Below, one piece after another: positions 9,722-49,064 of a stretch of DNA of 49,064 bases. The translations under genes were made by a program, and so were the position numbers. The stretch's first letter is position 1; each line of letters begins with the position of its first letter. The notes under the pieces are model-generated. The model was not told the origin of the DNA and did not search any database. It saw nothing but the letters and a program-made list of their open reading frames with translations. Source of the DNA: a virus; IMG/VR virus record IMGVR_UViG_3300045988_163663, one strand, 5' to 3'.

Positions 9722-9732
9722 TATTTACCTCC

Positions 9733-12700
9733 TTATACTCTTGTTAAAGCTTCATTTGTTGTAATCGACATATTTCCATTATAAGTTAAAGGAAGAGTAT
9801 ATTGAGTTATAACAAATTCCCCTTGTATATTACTTTTTCTATCATTTATATAGATTAAATTATTAGGTTCTAAATAATATCTTGGCGCACAGTTAATAGT
9901 AACAGTTAAATTATAAATTAAATACTAATATAACATTTCTCTTATATAATCAAATGCCGTACTTCCTGTTCCGCTAGAACTAAATAATTTCATTTGCCCC
10001 GGTTTTAAAGCACAATAAGCCTAACCTTTTAATGTATAATCTTCTATCTTTTGAATTAAATCTGCTTCCCCAGTATTTTCAAAAAATATGATATCAGGCA
10101 CTTCTAATTTATATAAAAGACTCATATTAGTTTTAGTCAATGCTTTAGTACGCCGGCCTATTTTATTAACTGAATATCTAGATACTAACTAATCTACATC
10201 AATAAAATCTAACCAATATGTTATTAAGCTAGGATCAAGATAAATAGCAGGATTCCATCCAATCCAAGTATCAGGTATGATTTCTTCATTTTGATTTTCT
10301 TCAGAAGAATTTTTTGATTCAATCTAATCAATTTGATTCCGCCATTCTTCATGCCAAGTTTCATTCTAAGGATTAAATATTTGTTTACGCCACAAGTATT
10401 CACCATCTATTTTAGCTAATAATTCATCATCATAGTCTCCTTTTTGAGAACCATTTTCATTATTTAATAAAGCTTGTCTAAATAATTCTTCACGCCATTC
10501 ATTGCAAGGAGTACCAATTAAAGTAAAATAAAAATTATCTTCATAATCAAAAGGTGGTTCTTCAGGAGTATATGTAATAATTTTAATTTTATTATTATCA
10601 TTAATAGTAGAAAAATCAAGAATGTTAGAATTATAAGCTTTAGTAATTTCTTCAATAATTTCATTTAATGAATAATTACCATCATCACGTAAAATAAAAA
10701 TTTTCTTTATTATATCTTCCTAATCACCTAAAATTTTTAACTAATTTTTTTTACCATCTACTGGATCTAAAAATGGTAATAATAAATTACTTCCTCCTGA
10801 TGTATTTCCATTTGATGTATTGTTTTTATTGTTATTCTCTTCATTGGGCTTTAACGTAAAACCTGGATCTAAAACATCTAAGGGCATAATTCCATAATTT
10901 GGATCTCTAGGAGTAGGACCAGGTATATTATTATCTTCTGAATTGCCAGGTTTATTTGGTTTAGATGGATCATCTTTAGGAATTTCTTCTATATTTTTAT
11001 AACTATAAATTAATTCAATATCTGAAGTTAAATCATCTTTATTTGTTTTATAGTATTCTAATAATTTTTTAATTAAATCGTTATGTTCTTCTTCAGTAAT
11101 AACAATTTCATCATTCTTATTTTTTATTGCCGGATAATTATTAGGAAATACATAATTATATTCCGTTTTCTTTTTAGATTCATTATAACTAATTAATTTA
11201 TAACTAGCAACAATAGTATTATTTATGGAAATTAAATTATTAGAATCAATAAAATTAAAATCATAATCCTTATTTTCTTCATCAAAATTTATATCTTTAA
11301 TAATCTTAATATAATAATTAATTTTAATTGTATTTAAAAAATTTTCTATGTTTCTTAATGAAAGTTCTTCGGTTAATTCACAAATCTAAATCCACTAACC
11401 TTCACTATCATAATAACCTAAAATATTTTTATTATCTATATTTTTTATTATAGTTAAATAATATTCTTTAGATTCATTAATCGTTGTATTATTATTATTA
11501 TTATCAGACTTATCATTAGAAGAATTATTATTTTTATTTGCATTATTTTCTTGGTCTGCTGGTAACATAAAATCAGGATCTAATACTGTGGAACCTGGAT
11601 TTGGTACCATAAAACCTGGATCTAACTCTTTTGTATTAGATATTAGCATAATACCATAATTTTCTGAATCTCCAGTTCCTTGGCCTTTACGCCACCAAGA
11701 GGTAGGAATACCAAAACCCGGATCTAATGTATTATCATCTTTATAGCTATCATTTTTATTATTATTATTTTTATTAGAAGAATTATTATTACTTGGCCAA
11801 CTATCAGTAGCATCTTTTTTAGGATAAACACCAAGAGCTAAATGAGTAAAGTCAATAATATCAGTTAAATCTTCAAGATATTGAAATCCTATAATTTCTC
11901 CATCTAATAAAGTAATTTTATAATATCTTATCTAATTTAAAAATATTATTTTATAATATAAAATAAACTAATCACCAGTGTAAAAAGAATAATTCTTTAA
12001 AATATTTTCAATTATATCTTCTTTAATGTTAGATTCAATTACTTCATCCACCATTTCTTCATGATTAACAGAATAAATAATTTCTAAAGCTTTTTTATCA
12101 GGTGTCTAATTATAATTACTTTTTTTATACTCAAATAAATAAAAAGCATGGTCACCATTACCTCGAACTACATCCCACATATATTGATTAGCTAAATCAA
12201 TTTGAGGTTTTTCATCTATGGCTAAATGATACTATATAGTTTTAGTAACTCCATTACTATTAGTTTTATCGCCCCATACAATAAAATCATTTTTTATATT
12301 TTCATATTTAGGACTATTATAATAAGATAATGCATCTTTAGCATTTGCAAAAGTATAATAATATTTACTATCTGAAAAAGCTTTTATATAATAAGTATCA
12401 TTTATTTCTGTAATAGGAGTATAATAATAGTTTAAATAATTCTTTTTCTACTAAAATACAAAATGACCATCTAAATCATAAAAATATTCATAATTTCCTA
12501 AAGATTCAATAATTTTATCAAGGACAGAAGTTACTGTGTCTCCCGCAGAAAATACTAATTCTCCTGGATAAGTAAAATCTGTTTCTTGATATCCTACGTC
12601 TTGTCCATAAATAAATTTGTGCTATAAAAAATTTTCATCTTCAGGAGCGTTTTCACTAATTACAAAACTTTTATAATCTTTAGAAAACCATATAGGATTT

Positions 12701-16868: not shown

Positions 16869-19800
16869 CTTCAATATACCAATCACGTAATTTTATATTT
16901 TTAGGAGCAATATAATCAGATAACTATTGTTTTAAATCAGCATTTGTAGCTATCTCATTTAGCAATTTAGCTACTGTTAAAATATTAGTCACACTTTCTT
17001 CTTTTAACTAAATAGAACCATCAACATTAAAGCATAAAGCATCTCCTGCTAATTTTACAACTCCATCAGAACGCAAAATATTAGTAGGAATACCATCCAT
17101 ATCATATTGATATAATCCTGAAACAAATCCTGAACTATCTGATTCTTCTATTGGTGTTTCTTCAGCTTCTAAACTCAATGTCTAAATTTCTAAATCTTTT
17201 CCCGGATCTTCGATAGGCAAAGTATATTTTCTACGCTTGTTTTCCCATAAAGAACCTACATAAGTTTTGCCTTCATCTCGTGCCCAAGGTCTACCATGAG
17301 AAAATCCTGGGTCAAGAGGTTTTTCAGATTCTACAGTATCTTCATCAAGCACAGGTATATTAGTACCATCATTATCTTCATCTGTTATAATAGTAATATC
17401 TTTATTATTAAGCATTACTATTGGATAAAATAAACTGCCCTTATTATCTGGTAAAAAAATCTATAACGCACCCATAGGAACAGTCTTTACTTGGTCAGTA
17501 GATTTAGCAAAATAAGCACCTGGATAATTTTCTTGTGGTCTAAGGTATTGCTATTTTACATTATCAGAATTAGTAGAATTAACTATAATTATATAATCAG
17601 TAAGAGACACTGGATTAGTAACCTATAATAAATCAATAAATTTTTTACCATCATATTTATACATAAAAGAAATCTATTTATTTATTAAAGAAGGAGTTCC
17701 CTTCTCATTATAAGTAATTTTAGAAGGTATATTAATATTACCAATGCTATTAACTACAAAATTAGTACTAACCATTATAGGCTTATAATAATATAAAGTC
17801 TAATTTGTAATAGCTTTATTTTCTAACCCTATAGTTACTTTAAATTTTATAAAATACTAACCCTTACAATCTTCAACTGGATTTGAAATTTTAAATACAT
17901 TTTTTTCTTTATTTACTTTTTCACAATCTAAATTAATAGGGTCTGCTTCAACAGTTATTTTATATTTATCTGTGGTGTTACCAACGGCATCCTAATAAGC
18001 AGAACCATTTATTATTTTATTACCATTATATCTTACTTCTGGCATGAGATAAATTGGTTCATAATCAGACCCACTTTTTTTATTAATAGGTTTAGTGTCA
18101 AGTTCACTGCCATCAGCATTGCAATCTTTAATAATTAATTGATAATCTAAACCACTAACTGTTGAGTCACCTGGTTTAATAAAAACAATACTTTTATTAA
18201 ACTTAAATTCTTTATCAGCTAATGTTATTACTTTTAATGATAAGGTATTATTAGTATAAGTATCTACATATTTAGGTTTAATATAATAATGTAAAGCATT
18301 ATTAGTTTTATCTATCCAAAGCTTTGAAAGCATTGAATTAGTAATTTTAGTAGTAGGGTATTCTAAAAGTTCTCCTCCATCGGGTGAATACCAAGTAACA
18401 CTTTTAACTCCTATATTTTCTTTATCTACGCTAATAGTTGGAGTAATAATTATTTCTTTATTAGCCTAATCTAAAGAAATACTACCATTATCATCATACT
18501 AAAAAGTATCTGTTCCACTAAATACTACTCGTACAGGCGATTCTTGTTTATAAGTAATTAATTTATATTCGCAAGGTACATAATCACCAGTATCTAATTT
18601 ACTAACACTATAAAATATTACATTACCATATTCTAAAAACTAACTTACATCAATCTAACTAACTCCAGTAGATAAAGGTAAATATGATCCATCCATCAAA
18701 TCAACATACCAATCAGCTTCATTAATAGTTTCTAATGAATCTACAATAGATAATTTAACTTCATTTTCACTAATAAATTGCGGAATTATAGTAAATCGTT
18801 CATTATAATATTTAACTACTCTAACATCTTTATATAAAGTAACATTAGAATTATATACTACCACTAATTTATATCGCATCTATTGATATACATCTTTGCC
18901 CGAAATAGTTAGTTCATTAAATCTTACATTAGAACTATCATTAATACATTCCCACCCAGGGCCGCCTATCTAATCATATTTTTCACTACCAGATAGAACT
19001 GCCGGATTCTATTTATACCAATAACATTTGCAAGTTTTTTCTTCTAATATATTCTTATTAGCATAATAAAAAACACCTATTAATTTTATTTTATCGGTAT
19101 CTTGAATTAATGATAAACCCTATGGCGCACTAATACCTACATAATATAAATCTTTAGTAGAATCTTGGACATCAACAAAACTAAGTTTTATATTTTTAAC
19201 AAAAAGATTAGGCTCTTTATCATAAACCGCAGTTATCTCACCTTTGCCGTTAAAAACAGTATCATATCTTAAAAATCTTTCTTGAAAAAATGTAATTTTT
19301 TTTATGCCAATTAAATTAATTCCAGTTAAATCATAAATTACATACTATGGTGAAAATACTTCATAATCGTAAATACTACCAGAGAAATTTATAATATCTA
19401 ATCTACGACTAAAAACAATACCTGTATCTTTTTCTACAAAATCAATTTTTAATCCATAATTACCAGCCATCATTGTTCCATAAAACTATGTTCTAAAATC
19501 GGCCTAAATCATAATACGAGGATAAGTAGTTAATAAACTAGTAAAAATTACATCTTCAGTGAGATTATCATTTTCATAAATTACCTATTCATAATATTTA
19601 CTTTTATCTTCTTCCTCTTCTATCGGTTCTTTACTATCTTCAGCCTAAGTATCAGTTGCAGTACCTTCTTCTGTATCATTTGATGAATTATTTTTATCAT
19701 CTTTTGGAGTTTCTTCTTCTTCCTTTTTAGGTTCTGGTGCATAAGCTAAGATACCATATTCATTACCATTACTATATATTTCACTTATTTCGACTACTTG

Positions 19801-20182: not shown

Positions 20183-20213
20183 AAATGAGGAGGAAATTAA
20201 TCCTCCTCATTTA
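20183..20213. other. Perfect 12-bp hairpin between tape measure and next gene
   Basis: aaatgaggagga-ttaatt-tcctcctcattt. It overlaps the tape-measure stop (TGA 20207-20209) and precedes the ribosome-binding site of the next gene. Confidence 0.5.
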
Positions 20214-23200
20214 GATTTATTTGCACTTATATATTGAGCCGCATTATTACTAAGATTAGACAATGCTTCTTCAATTTCATAATGATCAGTAACTCCTGGG
20301 AAGTCTGCTTGAATAGTAACTTCTTGCTTAATTGGCTAAGTTTCATAAACAGGTGGAGTAGTTTTATCAATCAAATTACCTAATTTTATCTATCCAAAAT
20401 TAATCATTGATTGTACTTGTTTATCAACCCAATCATTCATATTACGAACAATATCAACTGCACGAAGTATATTAGAAGTATCTTTTTGGTTAAGAATTAA
20501 TTCTTTAGGATGGACTTTAATAATTCTACCATTATCAGGTCCGAAACCTTGTCCTTTAGCCCAATTGCCTGTATAGGCACCAGAAGCTGCACCATTTCCT
20601 AAAACTTTATCTAACCATTCTGCATTTTTATTAGTTGTAATTTCTTTCTTTTCTTCTTCAGACCAATAATCAGTAGAAGAACCATTCTTTAAAATCTATG
20701 AACCTTCCTATTCCATATCAGATAATTTTAAATTACGGATATCTTTCAAAGTTTTGATGTCATCAGTAGTCCAAGTACGGCCACTTTCATCTGTATAAGT
20801 ACCACCATTTTTACTTAAAGAAATTATAGCAGCACTATAATCAACACCAATATCATAAGTTAATCCGCCGCTACCACTACTACCAAAGTTACCATCAATA
20901 TACTATTCATTTTTAGCTAATTCTTCATCAGTTCGCTTAGAATATTTCTATTCCCAATCAAGAACCATTCCAATAGACTAAGAAATATAGCCCATTAATA
21001 CATTAACAAGTTCTTCAATTTCATCACATAATTTTTGAATATGTTCTTCAAGACTATCAAGAGTGCCGCCCATATCAGAACCGAAAGTTTCCCAAGATGT
21101 ACCAGCAACGTTCATTGCTGCTTCAACAACTTTTTGCCAATCTTTATAATTGGTTTGTAATTCACTAATTGTAGTATTAGAATTATTAACAAATAACATA
21201 TAAGCATCATTATAATCATACAAATCAGTCATTTGGCCGTAGAGAGTATCATGGAATGTTAATCCACTATTTACAACACCTTTATTTAATTCATCAAGTA
21301 AATATCTTTGTCTTTCAACATAATACTCTTGCAATGATAATAGCTGATTTGAATAATCCGCAGAGTTTTTATCAAGATCTTGTAAGGCTTCTTTAAAATC
21401 AATTTGATTCTAAATTAACTATTCACTTACATCATTAATATAATCCTTACTTAACTTACCTAATTCATGAACCGCATCTTCATATTTCTATGTGGCGTCT
21501 TCAATTTTTTCTTCATCTGCATCATAAGCATAAGTCCAGTTACCCGCGGCATCACGCACTAAACGCATTGAAGTTTTAGAATTTTGTTGCTCCATAAGAG
21601 CTATTTCAGCAAGTTGTAAGTCATATTTCTTCTATAAATACTCAAGGTCATATTGGCTCATCTAGACGCCATCGGCCTGGAGATCGTGAATCTCTTGCTA
21701 AATGTCTCTAAGTTTTTGTTTAGCTAAAAGGTCATTAGTATCAGCCAGCTATAAATTTAGCTAACGATTTAATTTATTTAATTCATATAAGCGTTCGGCA
21801 TCATCAAGATATTCTTCATTGATAGTCTTTGCTTTTTCATATTTATCTTGGAAATCTTCAAGAGTTTCAAACGGCGATAACGCATTACTTAATACATTAA
21901 CAGCCATCTCAACACGCATTTCAAATAAATCTTGAGCAGCTTCAAGGGTTTCTTCCCAAGAAGCTAAAAATTCATCAGAAGCTTTTTCAGTTTCTTGTTT
22001 TAATACTTCAACTTGATTCTCCCAGAATTTTACAGAAGATGTGTCACCATCAGCCTAACGATCAGCAAGGGCAGCCTATGCTTCTTTAGTTGCTTTAGCC
22101 AAACCATCCATTTGCGCTTTTAAAGATTTCATTTTACCTAACATTGTTTCTACTTTAGTAGCACCAATCTAAGTTTTTAATCCCATATCAAGCATTGAAC
22201 GACCAGACAAATCAATAATATTATTAAGATGGTCAAGCATTGATGTATAAGTATCAAGACGTTCTATCTACTTATCAATTTCATCAAGAGCCAAGTCTAG
22301 AACATTCTAAACCAAATCTTCAATATCATTACGTAAATCTAGAATAGCCTCATTAACGTCAATCAAATCACTTTGGTATTCAAGTATTTGTTCATCGAAC
22401 ATCTACTCATAACCTGGGTGTCTAGCTTTTGCAGCATTTAACTCATCAATACCCTAACGTAATGTAGCACCTTTATCAAAAAGCTATAACATCTCTTGTT
22501 CTTGATAAGCAAATCCTTCAAGCATTGCTTCAATAGTTTGTTTATTACCATGAGCCTATTTAAGAAGTTTTTCTTGATAATAATTAAGACGTTTAATCTA
22601 AAAATCAATCTACTTAACTTTCCAATCAATTTGCTTTGTAATAGCTTCTAGTTCAAGTTCAGCAGCTTCTTTCTCTTTTTGAGCAATAAGAGCGACATTT
22701 TCATCAATACGCTCTTGAATACCCATAGGGCCGTCAAGACCATCTTTAATTTTAGTAAACCATTCATTTAGGTCTTCTTCGCTCATACCATCTTCAAGAT
22801 TTTTTTGATATTGTGCCCAAACTTTGCCCCATAATTCAGAAGCATTAGCAATTTCACCATCATCAGTAAGTTTTATTTCAAACTCTGGATGGTCTTTATT
22901 AAATTCTTCTACTTTAAGTTTTAATAATTTTTTCCAAGATTTAATCTAATCTTCAAGAATGTCCTGCTCTTCTTCTAATAATTTTATTTCTTCTTGAATA
23001 TATTTAGCTGAGTCTTCTGGATTAGCTCCCTCACGTAAAGCTTCAAGACGATCACGTTTCTTTTCTTTAGTTTTTAACAATTCATCTTGAATTTCTTTAC
23101 CAATATCATTAGCGGATTTAGATTCAGAACCTCCTCCTCCACCGCCACCTTTATTATTGCCATTTTCGGTAGTTAAATATTTCCCACCATCACCTTTAGT

Positions 23201-26200
23201 GACTAAAGAACCTTCAGAAGCTACACTTATAGTATCTCCGATAGTTCTTTTAAGTTCAGCAATTCTAGCTGGATCAGCATTAGTTGGGTCTTTCATAATT
23301 TCTGCTATTTCCTAAAAAGCATTAAATAAAATCTATAATTGAGAAGTATTAAAATGGATACCAACTTGTCCCATAGCATTAATATAGCCGCACATCTCTT
23401 CAATAGTTCCGCCAAGAGGAGCAAGAGCAGCTAATGCCTAAGAAGCATCTGCAGTAATTCTACCATCAACTACAAATCCATCATTCTAAGATAAAAGATT
23501 AGTTATTTCATTTAATTTTGCCTAAGCAGCAGTCTATAAAGCTGAAAAATCTAATTTCCCAGCAGATTCATTTATTTGCTAAACTAACTAATCATCTAAT
23601 TTACCAAATAATTCAAGGAATTGTCCGGCTAAAGCAGCTTCATCATCATTACCCCATAAAAATTTTTCTACTAAAGGCTAGTTAACTTCATAATCTGATT
23701 CAGATAAATTAAATAAATCTTTAACACTTTGTTTTAAATCATTTTCAACTTCAGTGGTGTCTTCGCCTTCTTCACGGAGTTCTTTATACTATGTTTTTAA
23801 TTCACTTATACCTTTAACAGCTTCTCTAATTTCATTATCTCGTAAAGTATTATAGAATTTTTCTGTCGCTTTTTCTACAGCATTAGTGTCTTCACCAGCT
23901 AATTCTAATTCACGATTATATTGATTTAAAGCCTCAGTATTTCCTTCAATATCTTGATTATTAGTAGCCCAAGTGTGTAATCCATTTTGACTAGCTTCAT
24001 CTGCATAATCAAAACCAGTCATTTCACTCATTTCTTTTACTGAATTAGCATTAGTATAAGCATTAGTTCTTAATAAATCAGCATTGTATGCTCCATCAAT
24101 ATTAGCCATATAAGCATCTATTATTCCTTGAATAATATTTGCTTGATCAGAAGAACTTAAATTTTTATAATAATCTAAATCATAGTTACCTACTTCATCA
24201 GTACCAACTAATTTCGCAATTTCTTCAGGGCTACCAAAAATATCTAACATTTGTTGCATATAACGGCCTCGAACATCTGTAAAATTCCCAGCTGCCATAG
24301 CTGCTAAATTATTATCATAATCCTATCCATTAATGCGTATTCTAGTGCCTAAATTAAACTAATCATTCCAATTATCCTAAGCAGTTTCGGCAACATTATG
24401 CTATTCTTCCGCTCTGTCTATTCCGGCCTAAATTAAAGCATTTTTATCTTTAGTATCAAAATCCTTAACTTTTATATATTCATCTGGACCAGTCTAAACA
24501 TAATAATCTTCAGAATTTAATCCAGCTGCTTTAAGTCCTTTAGTAATTTCATCATACTTTTCTTTAGTAATAGAACTGCCAACATCTTGACCCATTAAAT
24601 CAAAAATTTCGATTAATAAATCTCTAAAAGTAGTAAAATCTTCTATAGGCAATTTATTAGCAGTTTCTTGCATCATATCATAGAAGCCTTTCCAAGCTCC
24701 TTCATCATCTGATACAACAATGCCTAAATCTTCTAGGGTATCAATAAATTCTTCCCAAGTTCCAGAAGACCAATCAAAATCAGCTATTTTATTTAACTAA
24801 TCAAAAGTTAAATCTTTTCCTACTGTATTAATTGCTTCGGTAAACGCAACAACCCCATTTTTTCCTGCCACTTTAAATATGTCTTCTGCAATCTAAGAAA
24901 TACGAGATTTTAATGAAACACTATATCCTTCAAATTCATCAATTGCTTTTGATATATCATCTTCATCTTCAAGCCCTAATATATATTTAAATGCTTTATT
25001 ATTACTTATATCTTCAATATTAGCAATCTAATGCGATGCTTCTTCTACTATAGCTTCGCCTAATTCTTTACCGCTAGTTACGCCTAATTCTTTCATCATA
25101 TTAGACATATATGATTTTACGGTTTCTTGCTATTCAGGTTTTAATAAATTAAAATCTTCGCCAAATAAACTCTATCCAATTAAGTTCTGTAAATCTTCAT
25201 CTTCAAAACCTTTTTCTATATCTATTTTTAACTATTTAAGCTAATCTTGAGTAAAATTGCTTAAATCGCCATCATTACCAAAAAATTCTAAAATACCTTG
25301 GCCTATAGTTCCTTGATTACTCATACCAGTCTAGAATTTTTGAGCCATAGCATAAGTAGTCTAAAGTTCTTCTCCCATAGCCTACATAGTAGCTATTGTA
25401 GTAGCAACTTCTGAGAATAATATAGTTTTTCCATTCTCTAATTGGAATGATCTATTCTAACCTTCACCAATTACAGAATTTTTCTAATTTAATTTATATT
25501 CGCTATCATTTTTATCAATTTTAGCCGCTGCTAAATAAGCATCCCATAAATTACGTAAAGCTTGATCTCCTTTACCAGCTCCACCAGCATTTTCATCGTG
25601 AGTTCCTATTTCTCGGTCCTTATCAGTTCCGTCATCCCAACTAATAGTTCCATTGTCATTATAAAAGCTATCTTTAATAGCTTCAATATTAGCATCTACC
25701 AAAGCCGTAGTTATTTTAGCATCTTCAGTAGACATAGTATCTAATCCAAGAGCCTATTGAACTGAAGCTTCTTTCGTAGCCTATAATGTAGCATCAGTAT
25801 TATTTTGTATTACTTTTGAAACATTAGATATAGCAGCTTGAACATCATCAGTACTAAATTTATCTGCTAAGGACTAAGCATAAAGATTTAATAATTCTTC
25901 ATCAGTTTTTTCATTACTTCCATTAGTTACAGAATAATTATTATCAATAAGTAATTGTTTAATTGCTTCAGTTAAATCTTGGCCTGTTCTATTATTTAAT
26001 TCATTCTAATTATTCAAAAGTAAATTAAGAGTATCTGCATAAGAGGCACCAGTTCCATCATTTTTTAATAAGGTACCTTTAGTAGTAACTGAAGAAGAAG
26101 CTGTTAAAAAATTACTAGTTAAATTCTACTTAGCTTTTTCAATATTTAAGTCTTCTAAATTACTTTGTTCATTAGCTAAAGCATATTGCTATTGAAGAAT

Positions 26201-29200
26201 CTATTTATCATAAATAGACTACAATTTATCAACTGCATTTTTATCTATCCAAATTTCACCAGTATCTTTCTTACCCCAAGCCCCTTCCATATCTTTTAAC
26301 TCAGGATAAGTATTTAAAATATTAAGAGCTTCTTCATTAGCTTTAGCTAACTATTCACGCCATTCTTTAGTACCAACAGTACATTCATCTAAAGCGGATT
26401 TAACAGAACTATAATTATTAAATACTGATTTTAGCTATTCAGCTTTATTTTTTGTTTCTTCTAACTATGATTTAAAACTTTCAATAGCTTTTTCTGACCG
26501 TTCAATTTGAGCATCTAATGAATAACTTTCAGCAGCTTTATAAGCTTTAACTAAAAGCCATACAACAGCTACTACTGCCGCAATCGCTGCTGCATATTTT
26601 GCAAATATAAGAACTGATTTACCTAACATAGCACTTAATGCGGCACCACTACCCTAAGCGTCAACTTGTGCTTTTGCTTGATTTCTAAGCTAAGCATAAA
26701 CTTCATTAGATATATTTTTAACACCAGTAGTATTTTTATAATCAGCTTTTAATTTATTTAGTTGTGCTTTAATAAGTTTATTATACTCTTCTTCAAAATT
26801 TTGAGTATCTTTAATTCCTAAATTAGCAGAAAAAGCATTAAATCCACTCTAAAGAATTCTTCCCTTTTTTGTATTACTAAAGCCTGAACCGCCAGATTTT
26901 ATTTTTTCCTAAAATGCTTCTCCTAACTAAGTACCATCCATACCAGTAGCAATAGAAATAATATTAGTCCCTAAGCCACCAGCATTTTTAACTATAGCCT
27001 AAATTCCAGAATTTAAAGATTTAAAACCATTAACTAAAGAAGGTAAAGCTATACTCGCAGACATTATTCCTGAACTTAATTTTTCACCAAAATTTAAATC
27101 ATCATTAGATAATGTTTCAAGCAATCCTTTAAAACTGGTTACTCCTATACTAAATTGGCTTATACCCTAAACTGTAGTAACTAATCCGTTAGAAAAATTA
27201 CTAATAGCTCCTTGGCTTTTTGCCAAAGTTTTCTAAAAATCATTTATTGAATCTGTGTATTTTTTATTAGCATTATTACTTTGTATTAAAGCTTCTTTTT
27301 CTTTTACATAGCCATTTAAACATTGCCGTAATGCTTCAATCTATTTTTTAGTAGCTCCATCAGCACTAACTTTACCATTTACATATTTATCTAAAACAAC
27401 ATTAACATCTTTTAAATTATTTATTTCTTCTATAATCTAATTTCTATATCGAGACTAAAGGCTACTATTAGAGCCATTAGCCGCTTTTTTTGCATTATTT
27501 ATTAACTAATTTAATGTATTAAATCTCTAATCAGTGTCCAACCCTTTAATATTATTAAATTTAGCTAAAAAATTCTAATAAGAATCGCTCTTATCAAATT
27601 TCTAAGAATTTAACTATTTTAAAACTTTATTACTATAAAATTGATCAATTAATTTTTGTCCAGCTTTATAACTTTTATTAAAATACTTTACTCCCGCATC
27701 TCCACCAAAATTTTCATTAGTAGTAAGAAAAATCTAATTTCTTGCATCTCGTAAACTATCCTAAGTCTATTGTTGCTAAACTTCAATACTTTTCTTAGCC
27801 TATATAGCAATATCTCCATAAGCCTAAGAAATTTTTAACAAAGTCTAAAGTCTTAATTTATCTGTTTCATTTAATTGGCTATTAGCTATCTATAAATCAT
27901 ATGAAGCCTAAGCCGCATTAATCATTGTAGTAGTTTCTAAAGTAACAGAACCCTAATCACTTAATGCTAATTTAGATTCAGGAGAAAAAGATTGTAAAGT
28001 CTGAATCATTGTTTTTTTCATAATTGCAGCCTAATTTTCAGCAGCTCCGCTATCAATAAACAAATTGGAAGCCATACGCTGCATATTATTTACAATATCA
28101 GGACCGAAGCTCTTTAACATTAAAGTAGAAATAACACTTAATACGCCAGGTAATCCGCCTAATGAATCAATTAATTTACTTGTAATATTTAATGTATCAC
28201 TTAATGTATCATTTAATCCAATAAAGAATTTATCATTAACTAATTGTTTATAAATTTCTTCAAGAGAAGCTTGTACTCGCTTTTTAGAAGCTTCCCAACT
28301 CTCAGCAAAAATATCAGCTTGTTCTTGTAAAGTACCTTTAGAATTTTTAGCTACTCCAACTAACTCTTTAAAATAATCTTTATTTTCCATAAGATTAACT
28401 AATTGAGTATATTGACGGACACCACCAACAGTCTATGCAAGGGCAACCTATTCAGCACGACTTAAACTATCCCACTTATTCATCATTTCATCAAGGATAG
28501 TATTCATATCTTTTAACTCGCCCTATTGGTCTTTAATACTAATACCAACTTTTTCAAGGGCTTTAGAATATTTATTTAAATCAGTACCATCTTCAAGAGT
28601 CTCTCCAAGAGTCAGACCCTAAATACGAGCGAATAAGGTTTTAAGGCTATTACCTACTGTATTCGCACTTTCACGTGTTTTGGCAGTTAATGTAGCCAAT
28701 GCAGATGTAGCATATTCATAACTAAGACCAATAGTATTAGCAACAGACGCGAATTTCTATATACCTTCTGAAATTTCATCAGTACTAGAAGCAGTATAAG
28801 CACCTAGTTTAGTCATTACATCAGCATAATATTCCAGAGATTTGCTGCCATCATAGAAATTATTCCAAACAGCAGTTAACTAATCAGATACTTTAGATGC
28901 ACTTTCACCCGCGGCGTTAGCCATTTTAATAGTAACTTCAGTGCGATCAGCAACTTCTTTGTCACTTAAACCCTATTGATAATAAATTAAAGAAGCATTA
29001 GTATAATTAGTAGTAGTTGTACTTAATGCTTGAGCAGCCTTATTCGCCTTTTCAGCAAACTCAGCCATCTAATCATTGCTCTATCCAGTAACTATACGGA
29101 TATCATTTAATGATCTATTTAAATCTTCTGCATAGTAATAAGCTTTCTATAGAGACCCCTATACCCCATGCATTAAATTAGATGAAATTTGCCATTTGGC

Positions 29201-29638
29201 TGTATTAGCTAATGTCTTTTTAAAATTATCTAATATAGCGTTAGTTCTTTTTAAAGGAACTTCAGCATTAATAACAGACTATGCTAATGCAACAAATGCT
29301 TTATCGCCTGTCGGGCCTAGATTCTCTAAATGTGTAGCAAAATCCTAAAGAGTATAACCGCTCTGGCTTAAACTCTTTGAAAATTTTGATAAATCTAAAC
29401 GTCCAGTATTAACATTAGTCGCCTAATCTAAAGCAATTTTTAACTCCTAAACTGCTGCCGAGGCTTCATCTATTTCTTTTTTAGTGGCATTAACATCAAA
29501 AAATTTAATATTTTTTGTTGCTATCTAATTCATTAAAGTATCTAATGAACTTTGTAAATCACGTAATTGCTATTTAGCTTGGCCTGTATCAGCCGTAAAT
29601 CGCATATTAACATTATAATTAGCACTGTTATTAGCCAT
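20207..29638 (-). CDS. Tail tape measure protein, ~3143 aa
   Basis: AAAGGAG ribosome-binding site then ATG at 29638. Six track fragments spanning 9.4 kb (28031-28390, 25484-25735, 24494-24676, 23789-24298, 22946-23296, 20978-21334) all fall in the same frame. It is Ala/Gln/Leu-rich and coiled-coil, with a Gly-rich segment GGGGGGGSESKS and a transmembrane-like stretch GKSVLIFAKYAAAIAAVVAVVWLLV. TGA stop at 20207-20209. Confidence 0.6.
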
Positions 29639-29685
29639 AAAATAGCTCCTTTCTCTCATTATAAATTTCTATATACAAAGAAAAA

Positions 29686-29712
29686 GCGAGAGGAACAAAG
29701 CCTCTCGCCTTT
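29686..29712 (-). terminator. Rho-independent terminator/attenuator between the chaperone-like gene and the tape measure
   Basis: Hairpin gcgagagg-aacaaag-cctctcgc. A U-rich tract follows on the minus strand (ttttctttg), and a T-rich tract follows on the plus strand as well. Confidence 0.55.
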
Positions 29713-29750
29713 TAATATTCCTATCTAAATTAGAAATCAATTATGATATT

Positions 29751-40537: not shown

Positions 40538-40550
40538 TATAAATCCTCCT

Positions 40551-42241
40551 TATTTACCAGCTGCTTGACGATTAGCGATTGTTTTTTCACTTTTTTCATC
40601 ATTAGCTTTTTCTGGTCGGCCACTCTCTTTTGTTTCTGTTTTTACTGTAGTAGTAGTATTTCCACTTGTTTTATTTTGAGAAGTGTTAGAACTATTCTAA
40701 TCTTTTTTACCCAAAATATCTTCACCATTTAATGTAGAACTCATAAGAGGCGGTATCATAACTTCGCTTAAATGTAGAACTTCATTTTCAAAATGAGCCG
40801 TATTAAGAATAAAACTCTATGATTGTCCAAGAGCAATCTAAGGTAACATTTTAGAGAAACCAATCTGAGTTTGTTCTTTATACATTTTAGATAAATCTTT
40901 ATAATTATATTGTGTAGTTTCTAACATATAGAACTTATAATTATATTTTTTCTAAACATTCAGGACTGATAATATTCTATCAAAAAATATGTTGAATTGC
41001 AAAATTAAATTGCGCATAGTAGATTCATCATCTAAAATAGATTTTTCCAACGCAATATTGCCGTCTGTATTAAACAAATTGCGCGAAACGCCAAATGCAT
41101 TATATACAGTTCGTTCAACACGCTCTAATTCATCTGTGGTAGCAGAAGTATTTTTATCAGAAGTATCAATAGCATCTACATCTGCAAAAGTAGTTAATAC
41201 ATCAACACCTACAGCTCTACGCAACATTTCAACAGCATTATTATGAATATCACGAGCTTCATCAATATCAAAAATCAAATCACCATTTTTATCAAGTGGT
41301 AATTTCTAAACTAAAATCTTTAATAATTTTTGCATCTGCTTGCGGCGGTCTAAATCTTGTGCGGCATCTAAATCCAAAATTGCTGGAATAGCATTTACAA
41401 ATAATGGAATATCATTAGTACCATTTAAAGCAAACTTAATAGTGCTTTGTGGATCTAACAAATACCAACTACCAGTATTATCACCAGCTACATCAGGTAA
41501 AAGTTTACCAGCCTTATAGAGACGATAACCTATTGTAAATTCATCAGGGAATAATTTTAATACTCTATTACGGTAATTAGTATCCACAAAAGTATCAAAG
41601 TATCTCATATCAAATTCAATAGCAGGTAAATTACCTACTGAATATCTTGAACGACAATACTCAATAGGAAGTTGCTATAAAATTAAGCCAGTACTTGAGG
41701 GAACAATATAGGCATAATAAGCTCCACATTTGATAACTTCAAGAGCCATATCGCCACAAATTTTCTTAATATAAGAATTATCTAAATAATTTAAAATTCG
41801 CCAGAAATCTTTTACTGCTTTTGTTTCATTAATATCTTTAACAGCAGAGCCGTCAGTATTATTAGACTAAATAGCAATAGCCCAATCATAACGATACATA
41901 TTCGCAAAATAATTACATACTCTTTGATAAATACCACTTACTCTAAAAAAGAAGCGTGATATTCTTCGCAATTCTTGAATATCATTACGAATTAAAGCAT
42001 CCATAACCATGGGCTTTGTATAAATACGTTCACGGCTATACTTTTCATTGCGGCGACCGTAAGTGTCCCATCTGAAAGATCCAAGATTTAAGACAGCATC
42101 GTCTAATGTCTTAACACCAACCTTAATCTTCTTATATTCATTTGGGCCAACTGCAGAATACTCACGTACTCCTCCAGTTATGTCAAAACCTTTTTTATGT
42201 ATCTATTCATTTCTGGTTAATTCTTCCTTTTCTAATTCCAT
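40551..42241 (-). CDS. Portal protein, ~563 aa
   Basis: GAAGGTGA ribosome-binding site then ATG at 42241. Track fragments 41306-41608 and 40952-41278 share the frame. About 9 in-frame TAGs. TAA stop at 40551-40553. It sits immediately downstream of the terminase. Confidence 0.55.
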
Positions 42242-42258
42242 ACTTCACCTTCTTTCAA

Positions 42259-42703: not shown

Positions 42704-44455
42704 TTAATTCATAAACATCCAATCAGCAGCCCGGAATTTTTTCTTCTTTTTATCTTCTTCTATTTTTTTTATATAATATAATCCATATTCTAATGCAGAA
42801 AATTTATCTTTTTTAATACTTTTATTAGCTTGTTTTAAAATAATATTTAAACCTTCATTCTCTTCGCGCAAATTCATAATCTCTTCGCGTAATGAGGTAG
42901 TTAAACTAAATGGTCTTAAATAATCAGATCGTGCTTCTGTGGTCATATTCTAGCCCACTTTAGTAGTTAATAGTTTCTATTTAGCAGTTCGTTCATCAAT
43001 TAAAAATTTAATCTTACCAGAATTTAATACTGACTAAGTAATACTATGTGCTTCAGTATTAATTGGTGCATTAGCTTTCATTAAGTATAAAACATCTAAT
43101 TCTGTACTATTGGTTTTATATTTTTTATATTCTTGAACTGCATCATCCTGAGTTCCACCATAAACTCCAAAATCAGGAATTACTTCAGAAGTTTCAGGAT
43201 TAATCTATGGCTTAACCATAAAATCTACTAAACCAACACCAAGTCCATTAGCATCTATTACAATTCTGCGAGCTTTATATTTATAATATAATTTTTTAAG
43301 TTTAATAGCCTAATCTTCAAAATGAGTATCATTCATAGTATAAATATTAACTAAACTTTTAATCGGTTCACCATGCGGTTGCGGCGTTACTTTAAATACG
43401 CAAACAACAGTATCGCATCCTTTACGGCCTACGTCAACACTTAATATATAATAAGATAATTTACTTGAACGGCCAGAAGCTTCATACTCAGGCTAATTCA
43501 GTATTCTATTCCTATTAAATATTTCTGCATTAAAAAAAGCATCTTCAACAGTACCAGACCAAATTGATTCATATTCACGTTCAAAAGAAGCCTCATTATA
43601 AGTTCCTTCATTTTTCTGGTCAGTAATAAATGTTTTCTGCTGTAATCCGACAGCAACAGGAGTTCGCCAAGTTCCGCCTAATACCATACATCTATCAGGC
43701 TATGTAATCATACGAACCAATAAACCAATTAATCTATCATAAGGATAAGTATTTTTATAACCAGCAGTAGTAATATAAATCTATGATTTATTTACCGCTT
43801 CTTCTTCATGAGTTGTACCATCCTTAGCTCTACGAGGAATAGCCATAACTGGTATAATAACTTCGCGCAAAATCTAATCATCAATACCTACACATTCTTC
43901 CATTAGACCACCATGACGACGCTGACCACGAGTGCTTTCTCTCGCAGCTAAATTATCAAGGACAGAACCATTCTTAAATACATAACGTACTTTATCTTTA
44001 CTCTCTTGGCTCTTACCTCGGCCCCAATCAATTTCACGTTTAAAACTTGGTATTAAATCACAAATTTCATTAACTTTATCATGTAGAATACTTGCGCCTT
44101 GTTCCTTACCACCAGAAGTAACAAATAAATGAACACCAGGATAAAGAATACATCTAACCATTAATGCCATAACTGATAAGAATGATTTAGAATAAGCACG
44201 AGGGAAAACTGCATAAACATATTGATAGCGCATTACACATCTTAAAAAAACACGCTAATAGAAGAAAAATTTAAATTCTCCTTCTTTCTATTCTGTACGT
44301 GTTCCTCGTACTAAAAAATCAACAAATAAATCTGGATATTCGCGCCAAAAGGCAGTATATTTACGAATGACTGGCATTACAGCATTAATACGTTCTTCAG
44401 AAAGACCTATCTTTTTTCGACTTGTAGATAGGTCAAGTAAATCTTGTAACGCCAT
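42704..44455 (-). CDS. terL: Terminase large subunit, ~583 aa
   Basis: ATG at 44455 overlaps the upstream stop (TAATG). Track fragments 43874-44233, 43493-43687 and 42704-42946 share one frame and are separated only by TAG. ATPase-type and nuclease-type motifs are present (SFEREYESIW; YYILSVDVGRKG...VIDANGLGVGLVD). TAA stop at 42704. Confidence 0.65.
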
Positions 44456-45669
44456 TAATCTTCCCTATCAGAGAAAGCATCTATATCTAACTCTGTTTCA
44501 TTATCTAAAAATTCACTAAAGTCTTCAATATCTTTATCTTCTAAAGTTTTTTCAATGTCTTCAATAGACATATCAACATCATCAACAATTGTATCTTCGA
44601 CGTTTTCTTTAGCCTATTCATCTTCTTTAGCGTTTTGTTTTAATGCCTAATCAATCATATTGCCAAGATTAGTTTCTCGTTCAATTAAAGTACGAGTGTA
44701 TTTTTGCATATCTTTAATTGTAAAATCTACTTTATCATTTGGAGTATCAATGTAATATCTTTCGATATAGCCTTGTTTCTCACACATTTCTATTAATTCA
44801 CCAACAGAATCAATGAAATCGCCAGACTCTTCTTTATTCTAGGCAGCAGTAAATTTGCCCGATTTCATTAAAGAATCATACATTTTAATCATCTTTTGGG
44901 CGCCGTCTACATCACCTATATCTAATAACTAATTAGATTTTAATGATGTCTTACAGGCAAGTTTTAATGTATCAATATGGCCTGCGGACTAAATATCGTA
45001 AGACTACATCATTTCATTAAATAATTGCTCTAAGCGCACCCATTCATCAGGACTATAACCTTTTCCCCATTTTAAATAAAGATATCGTTTATCTTCGTCT
45101 GTTAGCTCTGCACCTAAATCAGGAACATCAAAATCTAATTTATCTTTAAAATAATCTTCCCCAGAATTCCCAAAATCTAATGGAGGAGGTGCGGGAGGAG
45201 GCGGCTCTTTTAATTCTTCTGATGGCAAAGCAAATGAAGCACGTTGAATAGCTGTAGTAATATCTTGAATGTCATATCCCTATTGCTTCATTGTTTCTTC
45301 TATTTTTTTATTTTGTAAGTCTTGCAAGAATTGACTATCTTTCCATCTATAATCTTTCCATTGATTTAATTTCATTGCAGAGAGATAGCGACCTAATATT
45401 GTCATTCCAGTGACTTTTGTCCTATCCTTCGCAAATTTACCCATTAACTAATTCCACTATTCAGGAATGTAAGGAACATCACATTCTTGCAATATCCATA
45501 GATAAGTATCCGGATTCCAATTGTCTACATGCATTGTTATACATTTTTTACATTTTGGTAATTTACCATCATTAGGATATTTATCTAAATTATTAGATGT
45601 ATAAAACTAAGTTCCATCCATAGTTTTATTACATTTTTCACAGTAATATTGTTTACCTTCGCTGGACAA
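44456..45669 (-). CDS. Terminase small subunit-like protein with an N-terminal C4 zinc ribbon, ~404 aa
   Basis: AAAGGAG ribosome-binding site and a TTG start at 45669. N-terminal CEKC...CKKC motif. It includes track ORF 45004-45228 and a proline-rich linker. About 8 in-frame TAGs. TAA stop at 44456-44458. Confidence 0.4.
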
Positions 45670-46780: not shown

Positions 46781-46809
46781 ATTATAACACAAAAAATTTG
46801 CAAAGTCAA
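46781..46809 (-). promoter_or_regulatory. Consensus sigma-A-type promoter driving the packaging/head operon
   Basis: Minus strand reads TTGACTTTGCAAATTTTTTGTGTTATAAT (TTGACT-17 bp-TATAAT, with TGn). Confidence 0.6.
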
Positions 46810-46864
46810 CCATGGCCAAAAATTTTTATGGTATTTAGTAAAAAAATTATGTAAAATGTAAAAT

Positions 46865-46893
46865 TGACAATTATAAAAATTTTTTATATAATA
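46865..46893 (+). promoter_or_regulatory. Consensus promoter, divergent from the one at 46781-46809
   Basis: TTGACA-17 bp-TATAAT on the plus strand, upstream of the 46922 gene. Confidence 0.55.
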
Positions 46894-47672: not shown

Positions 47673-47873
47673 ATGCTGAAAACAGCTTATACAAGAAAAC
47701 TCGACACAGTTGGACGTTTAATGATTCCTTCTAAACTTCGTGAAGAATTGCATATGGTAAATGGTCATAATTATGAATTTTACATTGATGAAGTAGATGG
47801 TAAGACTTTTTTATGTATTGAATGTCCTGAAGCCAGTGATGCCGTAGCTCTTGCGAAAGAAACATTGGAATAG
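47673..47873 (+). CDS. AbrB/MazE/SpoVT-family (swapped-hairpin) DNA-binding protein
   Basis: AAAGGAG ribosome-binding site. Motif TRKLDTVGRLMIPSKLREEL...EFYIDE matches the AbrB N-terminal domain. It ends at TAG 47871. If that TAG is read, it continues 10 codons to TAA at 47901-47903, just before the terminator. Confidence 0.6.
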   Translation: MLKTAYTRKLDTVGRLMIPSKLREELHMVNGHNYEFYIDEVDGKTFLCIECPEASDAVALAKETLE

Positions 47874-47905
47874 AATGGATATCGAGTAATTAAGGAATAA
47901 AATTA

Positions 47906-47938
47906 AAGCGGGAAAATATTTTCCCGCTTATTTTTTTT
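47906..47938 (+). terminator. Rho-independent terminator
   Basis: Hairpin aagcgggaaaa-ta-ttttcccgctt followed by a T8 run. Confidence 0.75.
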
Positions 47939-48010
47939 ATAAATTTATTCCGTATTCTGAAATTAAAAATGAGTTTATAAATTTATTCCGATTTCTAAAA
48001 TTAAAAAAGG
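47936..48010. repeat. Tandem ~37-bp direct repeat (2 copies, ~89% identical)
   Basis: The two copies are tttataaatttattccgtattctgaaattaaaaatgag and tttataaatttattccgatttctaaaattaaaaaagg. Confidence 0.7.
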
Positions 48011-48193
48011 TTTTAGAAATTATTTTGCCAGGTAGGAAGATTTATCCATTTTTTCCATTTTTTTTACACGAAACCCTGCCCCCCCACTTCACTTGACTAA
48101 AATGTTAAAGTCTATTGTCTTGCTTTATTCAAATGAAGCAAGTTAGATACGACTAACCCCCTAAAAAAATATTTCGATTTTTGAAAAAAAGTA

Positions 48194-48228
48194 GTTGACA
48201 TTTTCGGGCATAGGTGCTATTCTATAAT
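48194..48228 (+). promoter_or_regulatory. Promoter-like element
   Basis: TTGACA followed by a TATTCT / TATAAT-like -10 region. Confidence 0.35.
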
Positions 48229-48302
48229 CAGAAATTGACCACGGGACAACGCAAAGCAAGCCGCAAGGCAAGCGAAAAAAAATCAAGAAATTTTGAAAAA
48301 AG

Positions 48303-48331
48303 TTCTTGACAAGCCGAAAATCCTATGGTAC
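48303..48331 (+). promoter_or_regulatory. Near-consensus extended -10 promoter
   Basis: TTGACA-17 bp-TGGTACAAT. Confidence 0.55.
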
Positions 48332-48332
48332 A

Positions 48333-48590
48333 ATGAGTACAACGAAGCAAGGGAAAAACAAACAACGCAAGCCCTTGCAAGTGTAGTAGAATGACCGGAA
48401 AGAGGCCGAAGCACCGAGCGGCGTTGAACATTGACAAGTGAATTTAAGCCGAACGTCTGCACCGCATAGCGGACGCAATGGTAGAACATGGAAAGTGCGG
48501 TGCAAGCGGTAGGGCAGTCCATCGCCTACGGCAGATAGCACCACGGACAGCTGACAACTAACAGTCAAATAATATGTAAAGGATTGGTAA
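48333..48590 (+). ncRNA. GC-rich structured leader / candidate regulatory RNA with GCAAG repeats
   Basis: Located downstream of the strong promoter. Complementary 8-bp segments gcaccgca (48458) and tgcggtgc (48503), plus ggtagg/cctac. GCAAG/CAAGG motifs recur at least 7 times. GC content is far above the neighbouring phage DNA. Confidence 0.25.
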
Positions 48591-48594
48591 AATC

Positions 48595-48999
48595 ATGGTA
48601 TATGCAATTAAAACAAGCGAACAGGACAAACAGAAAGCTATCAAAGCAGAGTTAGCAGAACAGGCACAAGACTTGATAGCATATGTCAAGCAATACCATA
48701 TGCTTGGCAATAGCTTCGACTATGATGGTATGCTGGACAAGTATCATGAATATGCGGCGAAGAATATCCCGCAGTGGGACAACCTGACTTGGGCTATTCA
48801 TAGTGCTGAATATGACTTGGAGCACACGGACTATAACATGGATATGGAAACTGGCAATCCATGTATCGCATATGAGGCCGCCTATGAGAAGCTGACAGAC
48901 TTGCAAGACGAGGCCGAGGAATGGGCGGATATCTTTGAACATATGCTCGAAGACTTCTTCTACAAACTGCACGACCTGCTATATGGTGAAGAAGCATAA
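48595..48999 (+). CDS. Acidic protein, 134 aa, of foreign (higher-GC) composition
   Basis: Intact ORF with GC-rich codon usage, Asp/Glu-rich. TAA stop. Confidence 0.45.
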   Translation: MVYAIKTSEQDKQKAIKAELAEQAQDLIAYVKQYHMLGNSFDYDGMLDKYHEYAAKNIPQWDNLTWAIHSAEYDLEHTDYNMDMETGNPCIAYEAAYEKLTDLQDEAEEWADIFEHMLEDFFYKLHDLLYGEEA

Positions 49000-49052
49000 G
49001 CTTCTTCACCCATTCACCTAACAACCAACTGACATTATATGGAGGTAAAACT

Positions 49053-49064
49053 ATGAACCGTATC
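49053..49064 (+). CDS. Start of the next gene (truncated by the window end)
   Basis: GGAGG ribosome-binding site then ATG AAC CGT ATC at the window edge. Confidence 0.3.

Follow-up and report, generated by a model that had tools for sequence, protein, structure and literature searches.

The right-hand end of a 49,064-nt stretch of viral DNA (IMG/VR record IMGVR_UViG_3300045988_163663; hereafter the window), which is a slice of a human-gut phage genome of ~189 kb, carries a region rich in guanine and cytosine (GC) in which two promoters are followed by a non-coding leader and by the gene for an acidic protein of 134 amino acids (aa). Comparative sequence analysis indicates that this leader is a real structured RNA, and that the GC-rich stretch constitutes the start of the first early operon of the phage, as opposed to a junction with host DNA or a recently inserted foreign segment. 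It is considered fairly probable that the region represents a cis-acting leader heading an immediate-early, host-takeover-type operon of a gut phage in which TAG has been recoded, while the confidence attached to any specific mechanism, i.e. a role as stabiliser or platform, is much lower. The region is situated mid-genome, at the meeting point of a leftward packaging/structural module and rightward early genes, just to the right of the terminase and portal genes.

The leader (48341-48594, plus strand) comprises 254 nt, of which 63% are A or G. Its minimum free energy (MFE) of -65.1 kcal/mol is unremarkable when compared to that of shuffled sequences (-60.6 +/- 4.2; z = -1.07; 30 of 200 shuffles as good), and single-sequence folding of either strand was not significantly better than that of shuffles (z of -1.07 and -1.14 for the plus and minus strand, respectively). 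The initial annotation had proposed a structured leader and had named folding no better than shuffled controls as one half of the case against it; on that count the proposal fared poorly, but covariation among relatives sustains it, and the thermodynamic z-score on its own would have wrongly dismissed the structure. The upstream regions of 27 distinct related loci were aligned, after which distant relatives were added that had been retrieved by a profile search over 1.8 billion protein representatives and subsequent contig look-ups; further relatives of the locus originated from JGI/ENA metagenomes and IMG/VR. Per-domain alignments and a covariance-model alignment were used, as the raw all-allele MAFFT/RNAalifold alignment misaligned the alleles of helices H1 and H2 and the rows of one 3'-domain type (type B, see below) and was hence uninformative. 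Across more than 30 related phages, the hairpin H1 and three H-type pseudoknots were found to be kept by compensatory substitutions. Additionally, invariant G-U pairs agree with the plus strand only (e.g. column pair 23/36, which is UG in 23/23 sequences).

The 5' domain of the leader (48341-48443) is present in every relative. Its first helix, H1 (48347-53 paired with 48372-78), encloses an 18-nt CA-rich loop in the window and occurs in at least eight sequence versions, each of which forms a 7-10-bp stem on a CA-rich loop of 17-19 nt; these versions include GCAAGGG/CCCTTGC, CAAGAGGAC/GTTCTCTTG, GAAACACG/CGTGTTTC and GAAAGCGC/GCGCTTTC. Similarly, at least eight stem alleles were observed for H2 (GCCG at 48405-08 paired with CGGC at 48419-22), among them GCCG/CGGC, GCGG/CCGC, GCTGT/ACAGC, CGGCGT/ACGCCG and GTCTGC/GCAGAC. 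Pseudoknot 1 is formed by CCGG (48395-98) and the H2 loop sequence CCGA (48414-17), and in one relative (L040) its CCGG/CCGG pairing is changed to CCAG/CTGG. The domain ends in a conserved single strand, TTGAACnTTGAnAAGTGAAT (48424-43); a pairing between the H1 loop and this conserved tail was considered and found to be unsupported by covariation. In the covariance-model alignment of 31 distinct sequences, 89.9% of the cells at paired positions can pair, as opposed to 31-49% when the partners are slid, and 11 of the 16 pairs display double changes, a figure reached by none of 500 shuffles.

The 3' domain in the form present in the window, designated type A (48448-48567), contains the short helix H4a (48448-50/48480-82) and two further pseudoknots. 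Pseudoknot 2 combines H4 (48454-58/48471-75) with H5 (48459-67/48495-503) and includes the invariant loop CAATGGTAGAACATGGAAA (48476-94), whereas pseudoknot 3 combines H6 (48506-15/48524-32) with H8 (48517-20/48545-48), in which GTCC of the H6 loop pairs with GGAC; a weak helix, H7 (48552-55/48564-67), follows. Among 23 type A sequences aligned with MAFFT, 95.2% of the cells are paired versus 22-34% with slid partners, and six pairs exhibit double changes, which was achieved in 0/500 shuffles. The strongest single evidence for the structure of this domain comes from L052, a relative whose acidic protein is distant from that of the window (profile E-value 7.5e-11). Its alleles of H5 (CCCTAT/ATAGGG), H6 (GCTATGGA/TCCATAGC) and H8 (GTTCAA/TTGAAC) are all rewritten, and in its H4 (CGTCT/GGATG) the 5' strand is kept and the 3' strand changed, while the 17-nt core ATGGTAGAACATGGAAA of the 48476-94 loop and the junction TGCAAGC are unchanged. 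Thus, unpaired loops remain constant while stems are rewritten in divergent alleles.

Type A sequences are 90-97% identical where the coding sequence following them is 61-97% identical at the nucleotide level (34-98% at the amino acid level), so that the leader RNA is under stronger constraint than the protein behind it; recombination may contribute to this high identity. In nine relatives (L020-23, L041-44 and L051) the 3' domain is of type B, a sequence unrelated to type A which adopts the same H4/H5 pseudoknot architecture with helices such as ATAACGA/TCGTTAT and GATAGCGA/TCGCTAT, and for type B only a hairpin is predicted that involves the Shine-Dalgarno (SD) region, the MFE fold pairing UUAAUCC with GGAUUGA. 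Two relatives (L046 and L047) lack a 3' domain and retain the 5' domain. The distribution of these 3'-domain types is mosaic with respect to the protein tree, indicating recombination within the leader.

The leader is non-coding. An ATG at 48391 opens an ORF (open reading frame) of 16 codons without an SD sequence and is missing in many relatives, and indels of 1-2 nt occur; a leader peptide was therefore rejected, as were minus-strand ORFs of 69-81 aa, which are open solely through the T-poor nature of the plus strand and whose frames are broken by these indels. The leader is followed by an SD sequence (AAAGGA, 48578-83) and the ATG of the acidic gene at 48595, and no terminator was found between leader and gene. 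A switch in which the H6 loop pairs with the ribosome-binding site (RBS) spacer was rejected, being suggestive in L052 and inconsistent in L010 and L040. The topology of HDV-like (hepatitis delta virus-like) or theta ribozymes does not fit the leader. There are no tandem repeats in the leader of the kind that characterises ToxI-like type III toxin-antitoxin RNAs, in which a pseudoknot unit of ~36 nt is repeated upstream of an endoribonuclease toxin, nor did the downstream protein, which is acidic, give a ToxN-like match. A long, near-perfect duplex (~20 bp) serving as RNase III cleavage site, as in processed early leaders of the T7 R0.3 and SP82 kind, is likewise absent, the longest supported helices being 9-10 bp (H5, H6 and alleles of H1). 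As regards the recurring GCAAG and CAAGG motifs that had been remarked upon, the former is enriched, with seven copies in 48224-48594 versus 1.2 +/- 1.0 in dinucleotide shuffles (0/1000 as many), while CAAGG is not.

A search of the entire window against the 4,227 models of Rfam 15 at gathering thresholds, which the initial annotation had called for with regard to the leader, returned no match. At E <= 10, a search of 47850-49064 produced chance matches upstream of the second promoter only (47850-48207, mostly on a terminator), and none within 48341-48594. The covariance model matches each locus exactly once, always on the plus strand and directly after the second promoter, with no further match in the rest of the 49-kb window or in 20-kb neighbourhoods. 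A scan of IMG/VR with a gapped core pattern also identified one copy per phage contig, including a contig of 188 kb; two additional pattern matches (L048 and L050) were rejected as chance since they lie within coding regions and lack the H2 stem. Among 185,579 species genomes, the sole motif match was a phage-like contig in an 'uncultured Mollicutes' metagenome-assembled genome (MAG). The motif is thus confined to this phage clade, where it always precedes the same acidic gene family, including in the most distant relatives.

The two strong sigma-A-type promoters that had been proposed upstream of the leader were confirmed. P1 (48195-48223; TTGACA-17-TATTCT) is TG-extended and preceded by an A-rich, UP-like tract, its extended -10 element being TGCTATAAT in most relatives, while P2 (48306-48334; TTGACA-17-TACAAT) is also TG-extended. 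Both lie in a diverged direct repeat of ~111 bp and are kept in every homologous locus that reaches the region. They are of the same type and UP-element style as promoters of the AT-rich neighbouring units. Transcripts from P1 would carry a 5' extension containing a GNRA hairpin (GCC-GCAA-GGC, 48260-48269), which emerged from the alignment and which is GGC-AAAAC-GCC in L009, L018 and L019. A third promoter at TTGACA (48431-36) was rejected, this sequence being TTGAAA in most relatives and having no -10 element after it.

The gap in which these promoters lie is delimited on its left by a bidirectional intrinsic terminator (47906-47929) with a 10-bp stem and T runs on both strands, which is conserved in relatives and is predicted to close the preceding small early unit. 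Between terminator and P1, a 38-nt tandem repeat, TTTATAAATTTATTCCGTATTCTGAAATTAAAAATGAG (47936-48011), is present twice here and up to four times in some relatives (e.g. L015), its appearance being that of an iteron or operator array. Additionally, a poly-C tract within 48079-48118 (6-8 C among relatives) is followed by the dyad-symmetric box ACTTCAyTTGACTAAAGtG, which is duplicated in some relatives and may be a candidate repressor operator. Immediately upstream of the gap lies an AbrB/MazE/MraZ-like gene (47673-47873) encoding 66 aa (Pfam MraZ, E = 1.9e-5). Its stop codon is TAG, and gene callers employing genetic code 15 lengthen the product to 75 aa; a switch of code by the phage would thus alter the C-terminus. 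Another gene of the MazE fold is located 8 kb downstream (17291-17740 of the full-length relative L001).

The acidic protein (48595-48999, plus strand) is the first ORF after P1 and P2. Its Asp/Glu-rich nature was borne out: with 14 D and 16 E versus nine K and no R, it has an isoelectric point of 4.27 and a net charge of -21, and it is predicted to adopt a four-helix fold (predicted local distance difference test score, pLDDT, of 83). The corresponding proteins of relatives carry net charges of -17 to -25; all four distant members that were checked are acidic. Length varies little across the family, which occurs in this clade only and amounts to 171 clusters at 90% identity and 10 at 50% among the 1.8 billion representatives.

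The DNA-mimic or anti-restriction role that had been suggested for this protein is left plausible by analogy, whereas membership of the Ocr or ArdA families is supported by neither sequence nor fold. A Pfam scan at E <= 1 returned only DUF3719 and DUF5767 noise and no ocr or ArdA, profile searches of PHROGs, NCBIfam and PDB yielded nothing relevant, and no resemblance to the Ocr/ArdA fold was detected; the comparison with ArdA/Ocr-like and other anti-defence families therefore produced no match. Nevertheless, the high negative charge, small size and first position of the gene are Ocr-like, as would be its presumed early expression, and a DNA-mimic or anti-defence-type function is plausible by comparison with T7 Ocr and with the SPO1 proteins Gp44 and Gp46. 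Gp44 of SPO1 is an acidic DNA mimic and host-takeover gene product (PMC8208478), and Gp46 of the same phage is an acidic DNA mimic which inhibits the nucleoid protein HU (PMC8892312). Furthermore, AbbA is a DNA mimic of AbrB (cited in PMC8208478), which is of note because of the AbrB-like gene immediately upstream of the gap.

In the mechanism that we favour, host sigma-A RNA polymerase would initiate transcription at the tandem strong promoters P1 (48195) and P2 (48306), and the first ~250 nt of the P2 transcript would fold into a compact non-coding leader consisting of the CA-rich-loop hairpin, the three H-type pseudoknots and A-rich linkers. As there is no terminator, the transcript would run on into a TAG-free operon of ~2.5 kb and 43-48% GC which encodes small orphan proteins. 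The leader would be a recognised, cis-acting regulatory platform: the compact 5'-proximal fold may shield the mRNA against 5'-end-dependent decay and help arrange the entry of ribosomes, while the invariant unpaired loops would dock a factor, a protein being likelier than a small molecule, by which early expression is tuned or switched off. The acidic protein would most likely be a DNA-mimic-like inhibitor of a host DNA-binding protein, such as a defence nuclease, a nucleoid protein, RNA polymerase or an AbrB-type regulator. A role in cis is best supported because the RNA begins within a few nucleotides of the P2 start, because no terminator precedes the SD sequence and because the same gene family always follows; the invariant loops, in turn, suggest that something specific is bound. 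The riboregulation proposed in the initial annotation is inferred, as are transcription from P1 and P2 and the functions of leader and protein, whereas the phage context, the promoters, the conserved RNA structure, the limits of the operon and the properties of the protein were observed.

Several observations weigh against this interpretation. Promoter use, the 5' end and processing of the transcript are all deduced from sequence, the thermodynamic z-score is, as noted above, unremarkable, and type A shows no convincing expression platform in the form of an SD-sequestering helix or a terminator. As the 3' domain is replaced in type B and missing in L046 and L047, it must be regarded as accessory, so that the 5' domain has to carry any single mechanism. 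The covariance model with which the 5' domain was aligned fits the sequences to H1 and H2, pseudoknot 1 being outside this model, and the mosaic variation implies that independent compensatory events are fewer than the counted cells. A mere stabiliser, moreover, would not need invariant loops of 17-19 nt, and the RNA probably does more than stabilise. Finally, no similarity between the acidic protein and a known DNA mimic could be detected.

A more speculative reading, which is put forward very tentatively, is that the leader is the founding member of a new class of phage RNA, be it a switch that senses a ligand or a protein, an RNA that processes itself or a decoy against a host defence or RNA-decay factor, which decides on the launch of the host-takeover programme of a genetic-code-switching phage; the 3' domains (type A, type B or none) would then be interchangeable sensor modules swapped by recombination.

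It appears unlikely that the leader is a riboswitch-like aptamer through which a small molecule or ion reporting on the state of the host gates translation of the immediate-early operon. The location in a 5' untranslated region (UTR), directly before the SD sequence, would befit an aptamer, as would the covarying helices, the pseudoknots, the junctions and loops that are both unpaired and invariant, and the SD-pairing hairpin predicted for type B; however, no Rfam family was matched even at the relaxed threshold, type A possesses neither a consistent expression platform nor a terminator, the 3' domain is dispensable in some lineages, and the orphan early proteins encoded downstream have no metabolic link. 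Decidedly doubtful is the proposal that a stable, trans-acting RNA is released from the 5' UTR to sequester, as a decoy or sponge, an RNA-binding factor of host defence or housekeeping. Such an RNA would be made first and probably abundantly from the two strong promoters, it is better conserved than the neighbouring protein, its modular 3' domains have been shuffled independently of the protein tree, and its multi-pseudoknot fold could withstand exonucleases. Against this, neither a terminator nor an obvious processing hairpin precedes the gene, and the RNA is always found directly ahead of the same gene family, even in the most distant relatives, which favours action in cis.

The organisation of the operon bears on another cis-acting role, namely that of a processive antitermination RNA similar to HK022 put or Bacillus EAR which would allow RNA polymerase to read through terminators. 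The 43-48% GC block extends from P1/P2 almost to the first strong terminator (~2.5 kb), and in L001 it occupies ~9,700-12,100, ending just before a plus-strand terminator at 12169-12191. The operon of L001 contains genes for proteins of 134, 111, 74, 99, 74, 80 and 103 aa, the second 74-aa ORF having a TTG start, and no family matches were obtained for the downstream proteins. Over the 8 kb after the operon (30-47% GC), many short plus-strand units follow, with sigma-A promoters matching 11-12 of 12 consensus positions and with their own terminators. Short units of this kind are also how the SPO1 host-takeover module is organised. While the leader is structured, lies immediately after the early promoters and would, as an antiterminator does, act in cis on the nascent transcript, the operon holds no plus-strand terminator-like site before a weak one of 5 bp (L001 12136) near the strong one at 12169-12191, the early units are so short and self-contained that read-through would be unneeded, and the motif occurs once per genome and not at several operons. 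An antitermination function is therefore most improbable.

Within the operon itself, a perfect 11-bp hairpin (GGTGAAGAAGC/GCTTCTTCACC, 48985-49010) spans the stop codon of the acidic gene; as it lacks a U tract it is not regarded as a terminator, and it is possibly an mRNA 3'/processing or stability element. The next operon gene starts at 49053-49064, after GGAGG (49041-45), and is cut by the end of the window; its product is 111 aa in full-length relatives.

The GC content rises from 0.296 (1-47873) and 0.316 (48040-48194) to 0.39 (48195-48340), 0.492 (48341-48594) and 0.44 (coding sequence of the acidic gene). The shift noted in the initial annotation is thus genuine, but its position requires correction from ~48040, as the best change point is at 48,190-48,240, ~150-200 nt further to the right, at P1. 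The GC content at third codon positions of the measured genes within the block is 0.42-0.53 versus 0.15-0.24 for AT-rich genes just upstream. An element boundary or host junction at this position, as had been contemplated, is contradicted by phage contigs of 185-193 kb, obtained from many samples, in which the locus is internal and flanked by phage genes on either side; its position within these contigs is arbitrary, which fits circular or permuted assemblies. Recent horizontal acquisition does not hold either, synteny being intact even where the acidic protein is only ~35-45% identical. The gene order that is kept comprises a YonG-like gene, genes for products of 51 and ~140 aa, the AbrB-like gene, a gap of ~690 nt containing promoters and leader, and the acidic gene. 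Since gene order, gap and GC-rich leader are retained in the most divergent relatives, and the block is found in every relative recovered, distant ones included, it is considered an old, integral part of the phage lineage, although it may have been acquired in ancient times by the founder of the clade. Despite the ~15-point GC step and the doubling of third-position GC, the notion of a horizontally acquired cassette, a prophage/host junction or an assembly chimera is hardly tenable, given that independent assemblies from many samples contain the same junction, that the GC-rich leader persists at such low protein identity, that the promoters resemble those of the AT-rich neighbours and that the boundary coincides with a transcription start and not with repeats or att-like sites.

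The preferred reading, a leader at the head of an early operon, accords with the coding properties of the surrounding genome. The minus-strand late/structural genes (4,800-47,000) are open solely when TAG counts as a sense codon (code 15). Summed over all ORFs of 150 codons or more, code 15 gives 14,540 codons and the standard code 3,419, the latter leaving almost no long ORFs at 4.8-36 kb of the window. One code-15 ORF (20207-29740, minus strand) spans 3,177 codons, and TAG-as-sense translation also yields the portal protein (40550-42244) and the large terminase (42704-44467), both on the minus strand. By contrast, TAG is absent from all 24 early genes of L001 (10001-20075), both as a stop and in frame, their stop codons being TAA or TGA. 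According to a published model, recoded phages express genes compatible with the standard code first (bioRxiv 10.1101/2021.08.26.457843), and the TAG-free early genes fit this model. A divergent pair of consensus promoters (46781-46892) was noted at the late/early boundary, with TTGACT-17-TATAAT on the minus strand and TTGACA-17-TATAAT (12/12) on the plus strand. The left end of the window lies inside a gene of the anaerobic ribonucleotide reductase small subunit/activase type (phrog_626), and a scan of the window for tRNA and tmRNA genes identified none.

Comparison of the locus by blastn with annotated phages (50,697 records) gave no match. An identical 134-aa protein is encoded on 16 public contigs, all from human-gut assemblies and 10 of them in the 50-200-kb class; the three largest of the contigs shown with the identical protein measure 188-189 kb. 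A 37.8-kb fragment of the phage (CAMELE010000019.1) has been binned in an 'uncultured Mollicutes bacterium' MAG, which is a weak host hint or a binning artefact. Promoters and SD sequences probably point to a Firmicutes-like host.

To our knowledge, large TAG-recoded gut phages have no cultured model, and the start of their infection is almost uncharted. The locus offers an experimentally testable handle on this stage, as it would constitute the very first transcription unit, is code-neutral and has a host-like composition. Its RNA, with three pseudoknots and invariant loops, is a good candidate for a new class of regulatory RNA and provides a compact metagenome marker for this phage clade, while the acidic orphan is a candidate for a new inhibitor acting on a DNA-binding or defence protein of the host.

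With respect to known systems, the early region of T7 has tandem host promoters (A1-A3), an RNase III-processed leader (R0.3) and gene 0.3, which encodes the acidic DNA mimic Ocr. The present locus resembles it in its tandem strong host-type promoters, its structured untranslated leader and its first gene for a strongly acidic, all-helical protein of ~120-130 aa at the head of the early genes. It differs in that the protein resembles Ocr in neither sequence nor fold, that pseudoknots with helices of at most 10 bp make up the leader in place of an RNase III duplex, and that the host is probably Gram-positive-like. The host-takeover operons of SPO1 have very strong promoters and their own terminators, and several of their products are acidic inhibitors of host DNA-binding proteins. 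The likeness here lies in the many short operons, the small orphan proteins and the presumed reliance on host sigma-A polymerase; in contrast, there is no homology to SPO1 proteins, the present phage has recoded TAG, and a GC content of 45% sets its first operon apart. We know of no pseudoknotted leader of this kind in SPO1.

H-type pseudoknots with conserved unpaired nucleotides by the SD sequence are also found in the 5' UTRs governed by the SAM-II and preQ1-II riboswitches and in the T4 gene 32 and rpsO leaders. The present leader shares with these its H-type pseudoknots near the SD sequence, but it has three of them in series, matches none of the 4,227 Rfam models and has no clear expression platform. 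The stabiliser of the Bacillus phage SP82 is a short polypurine tract similar to an SD sequence, and it acts through the binding of ribosomes. PMC7509114, citing Hue et al. 1995, describes an RBS-dependent 5' stabiliser of SP82 early mRNA, for which the RBS is needed for mRNA stability. The leader described here is similarly a purine-rich, 5'-proximal element on a phage early transcript with a sigma-A promoter, and a block to decay is plausible; however, an RNA of ~230 nt with three covarying pseudoknots and invariant loops goes far beyond the needs of stabilisation. Theta ribozymes adopt a nested HDV double pseudoknot. These minimal HDV-like ribozymes of recoded gut phages adjoin viral tRNA genes (PMC10879173). 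The leader is comparable in being a pseudoknotted RNA of a gut phage with recoding, as in those phages with suppressor tRNAs and recoding, but it has no tRNA beside it, matches no HDV family and forms simple H-type pseudoknots behind promoters. In conclusion, modules in which strong early promoters precede a structured leader and the gene for an acidic first protein are familiar as a type, while the RNA family is new to Rfam 15, the protein is an orphan, and the setting, a code-neutral and compositionally distinct first operon of a TAG-recoded gut phage of ~190 kb, is unusual.

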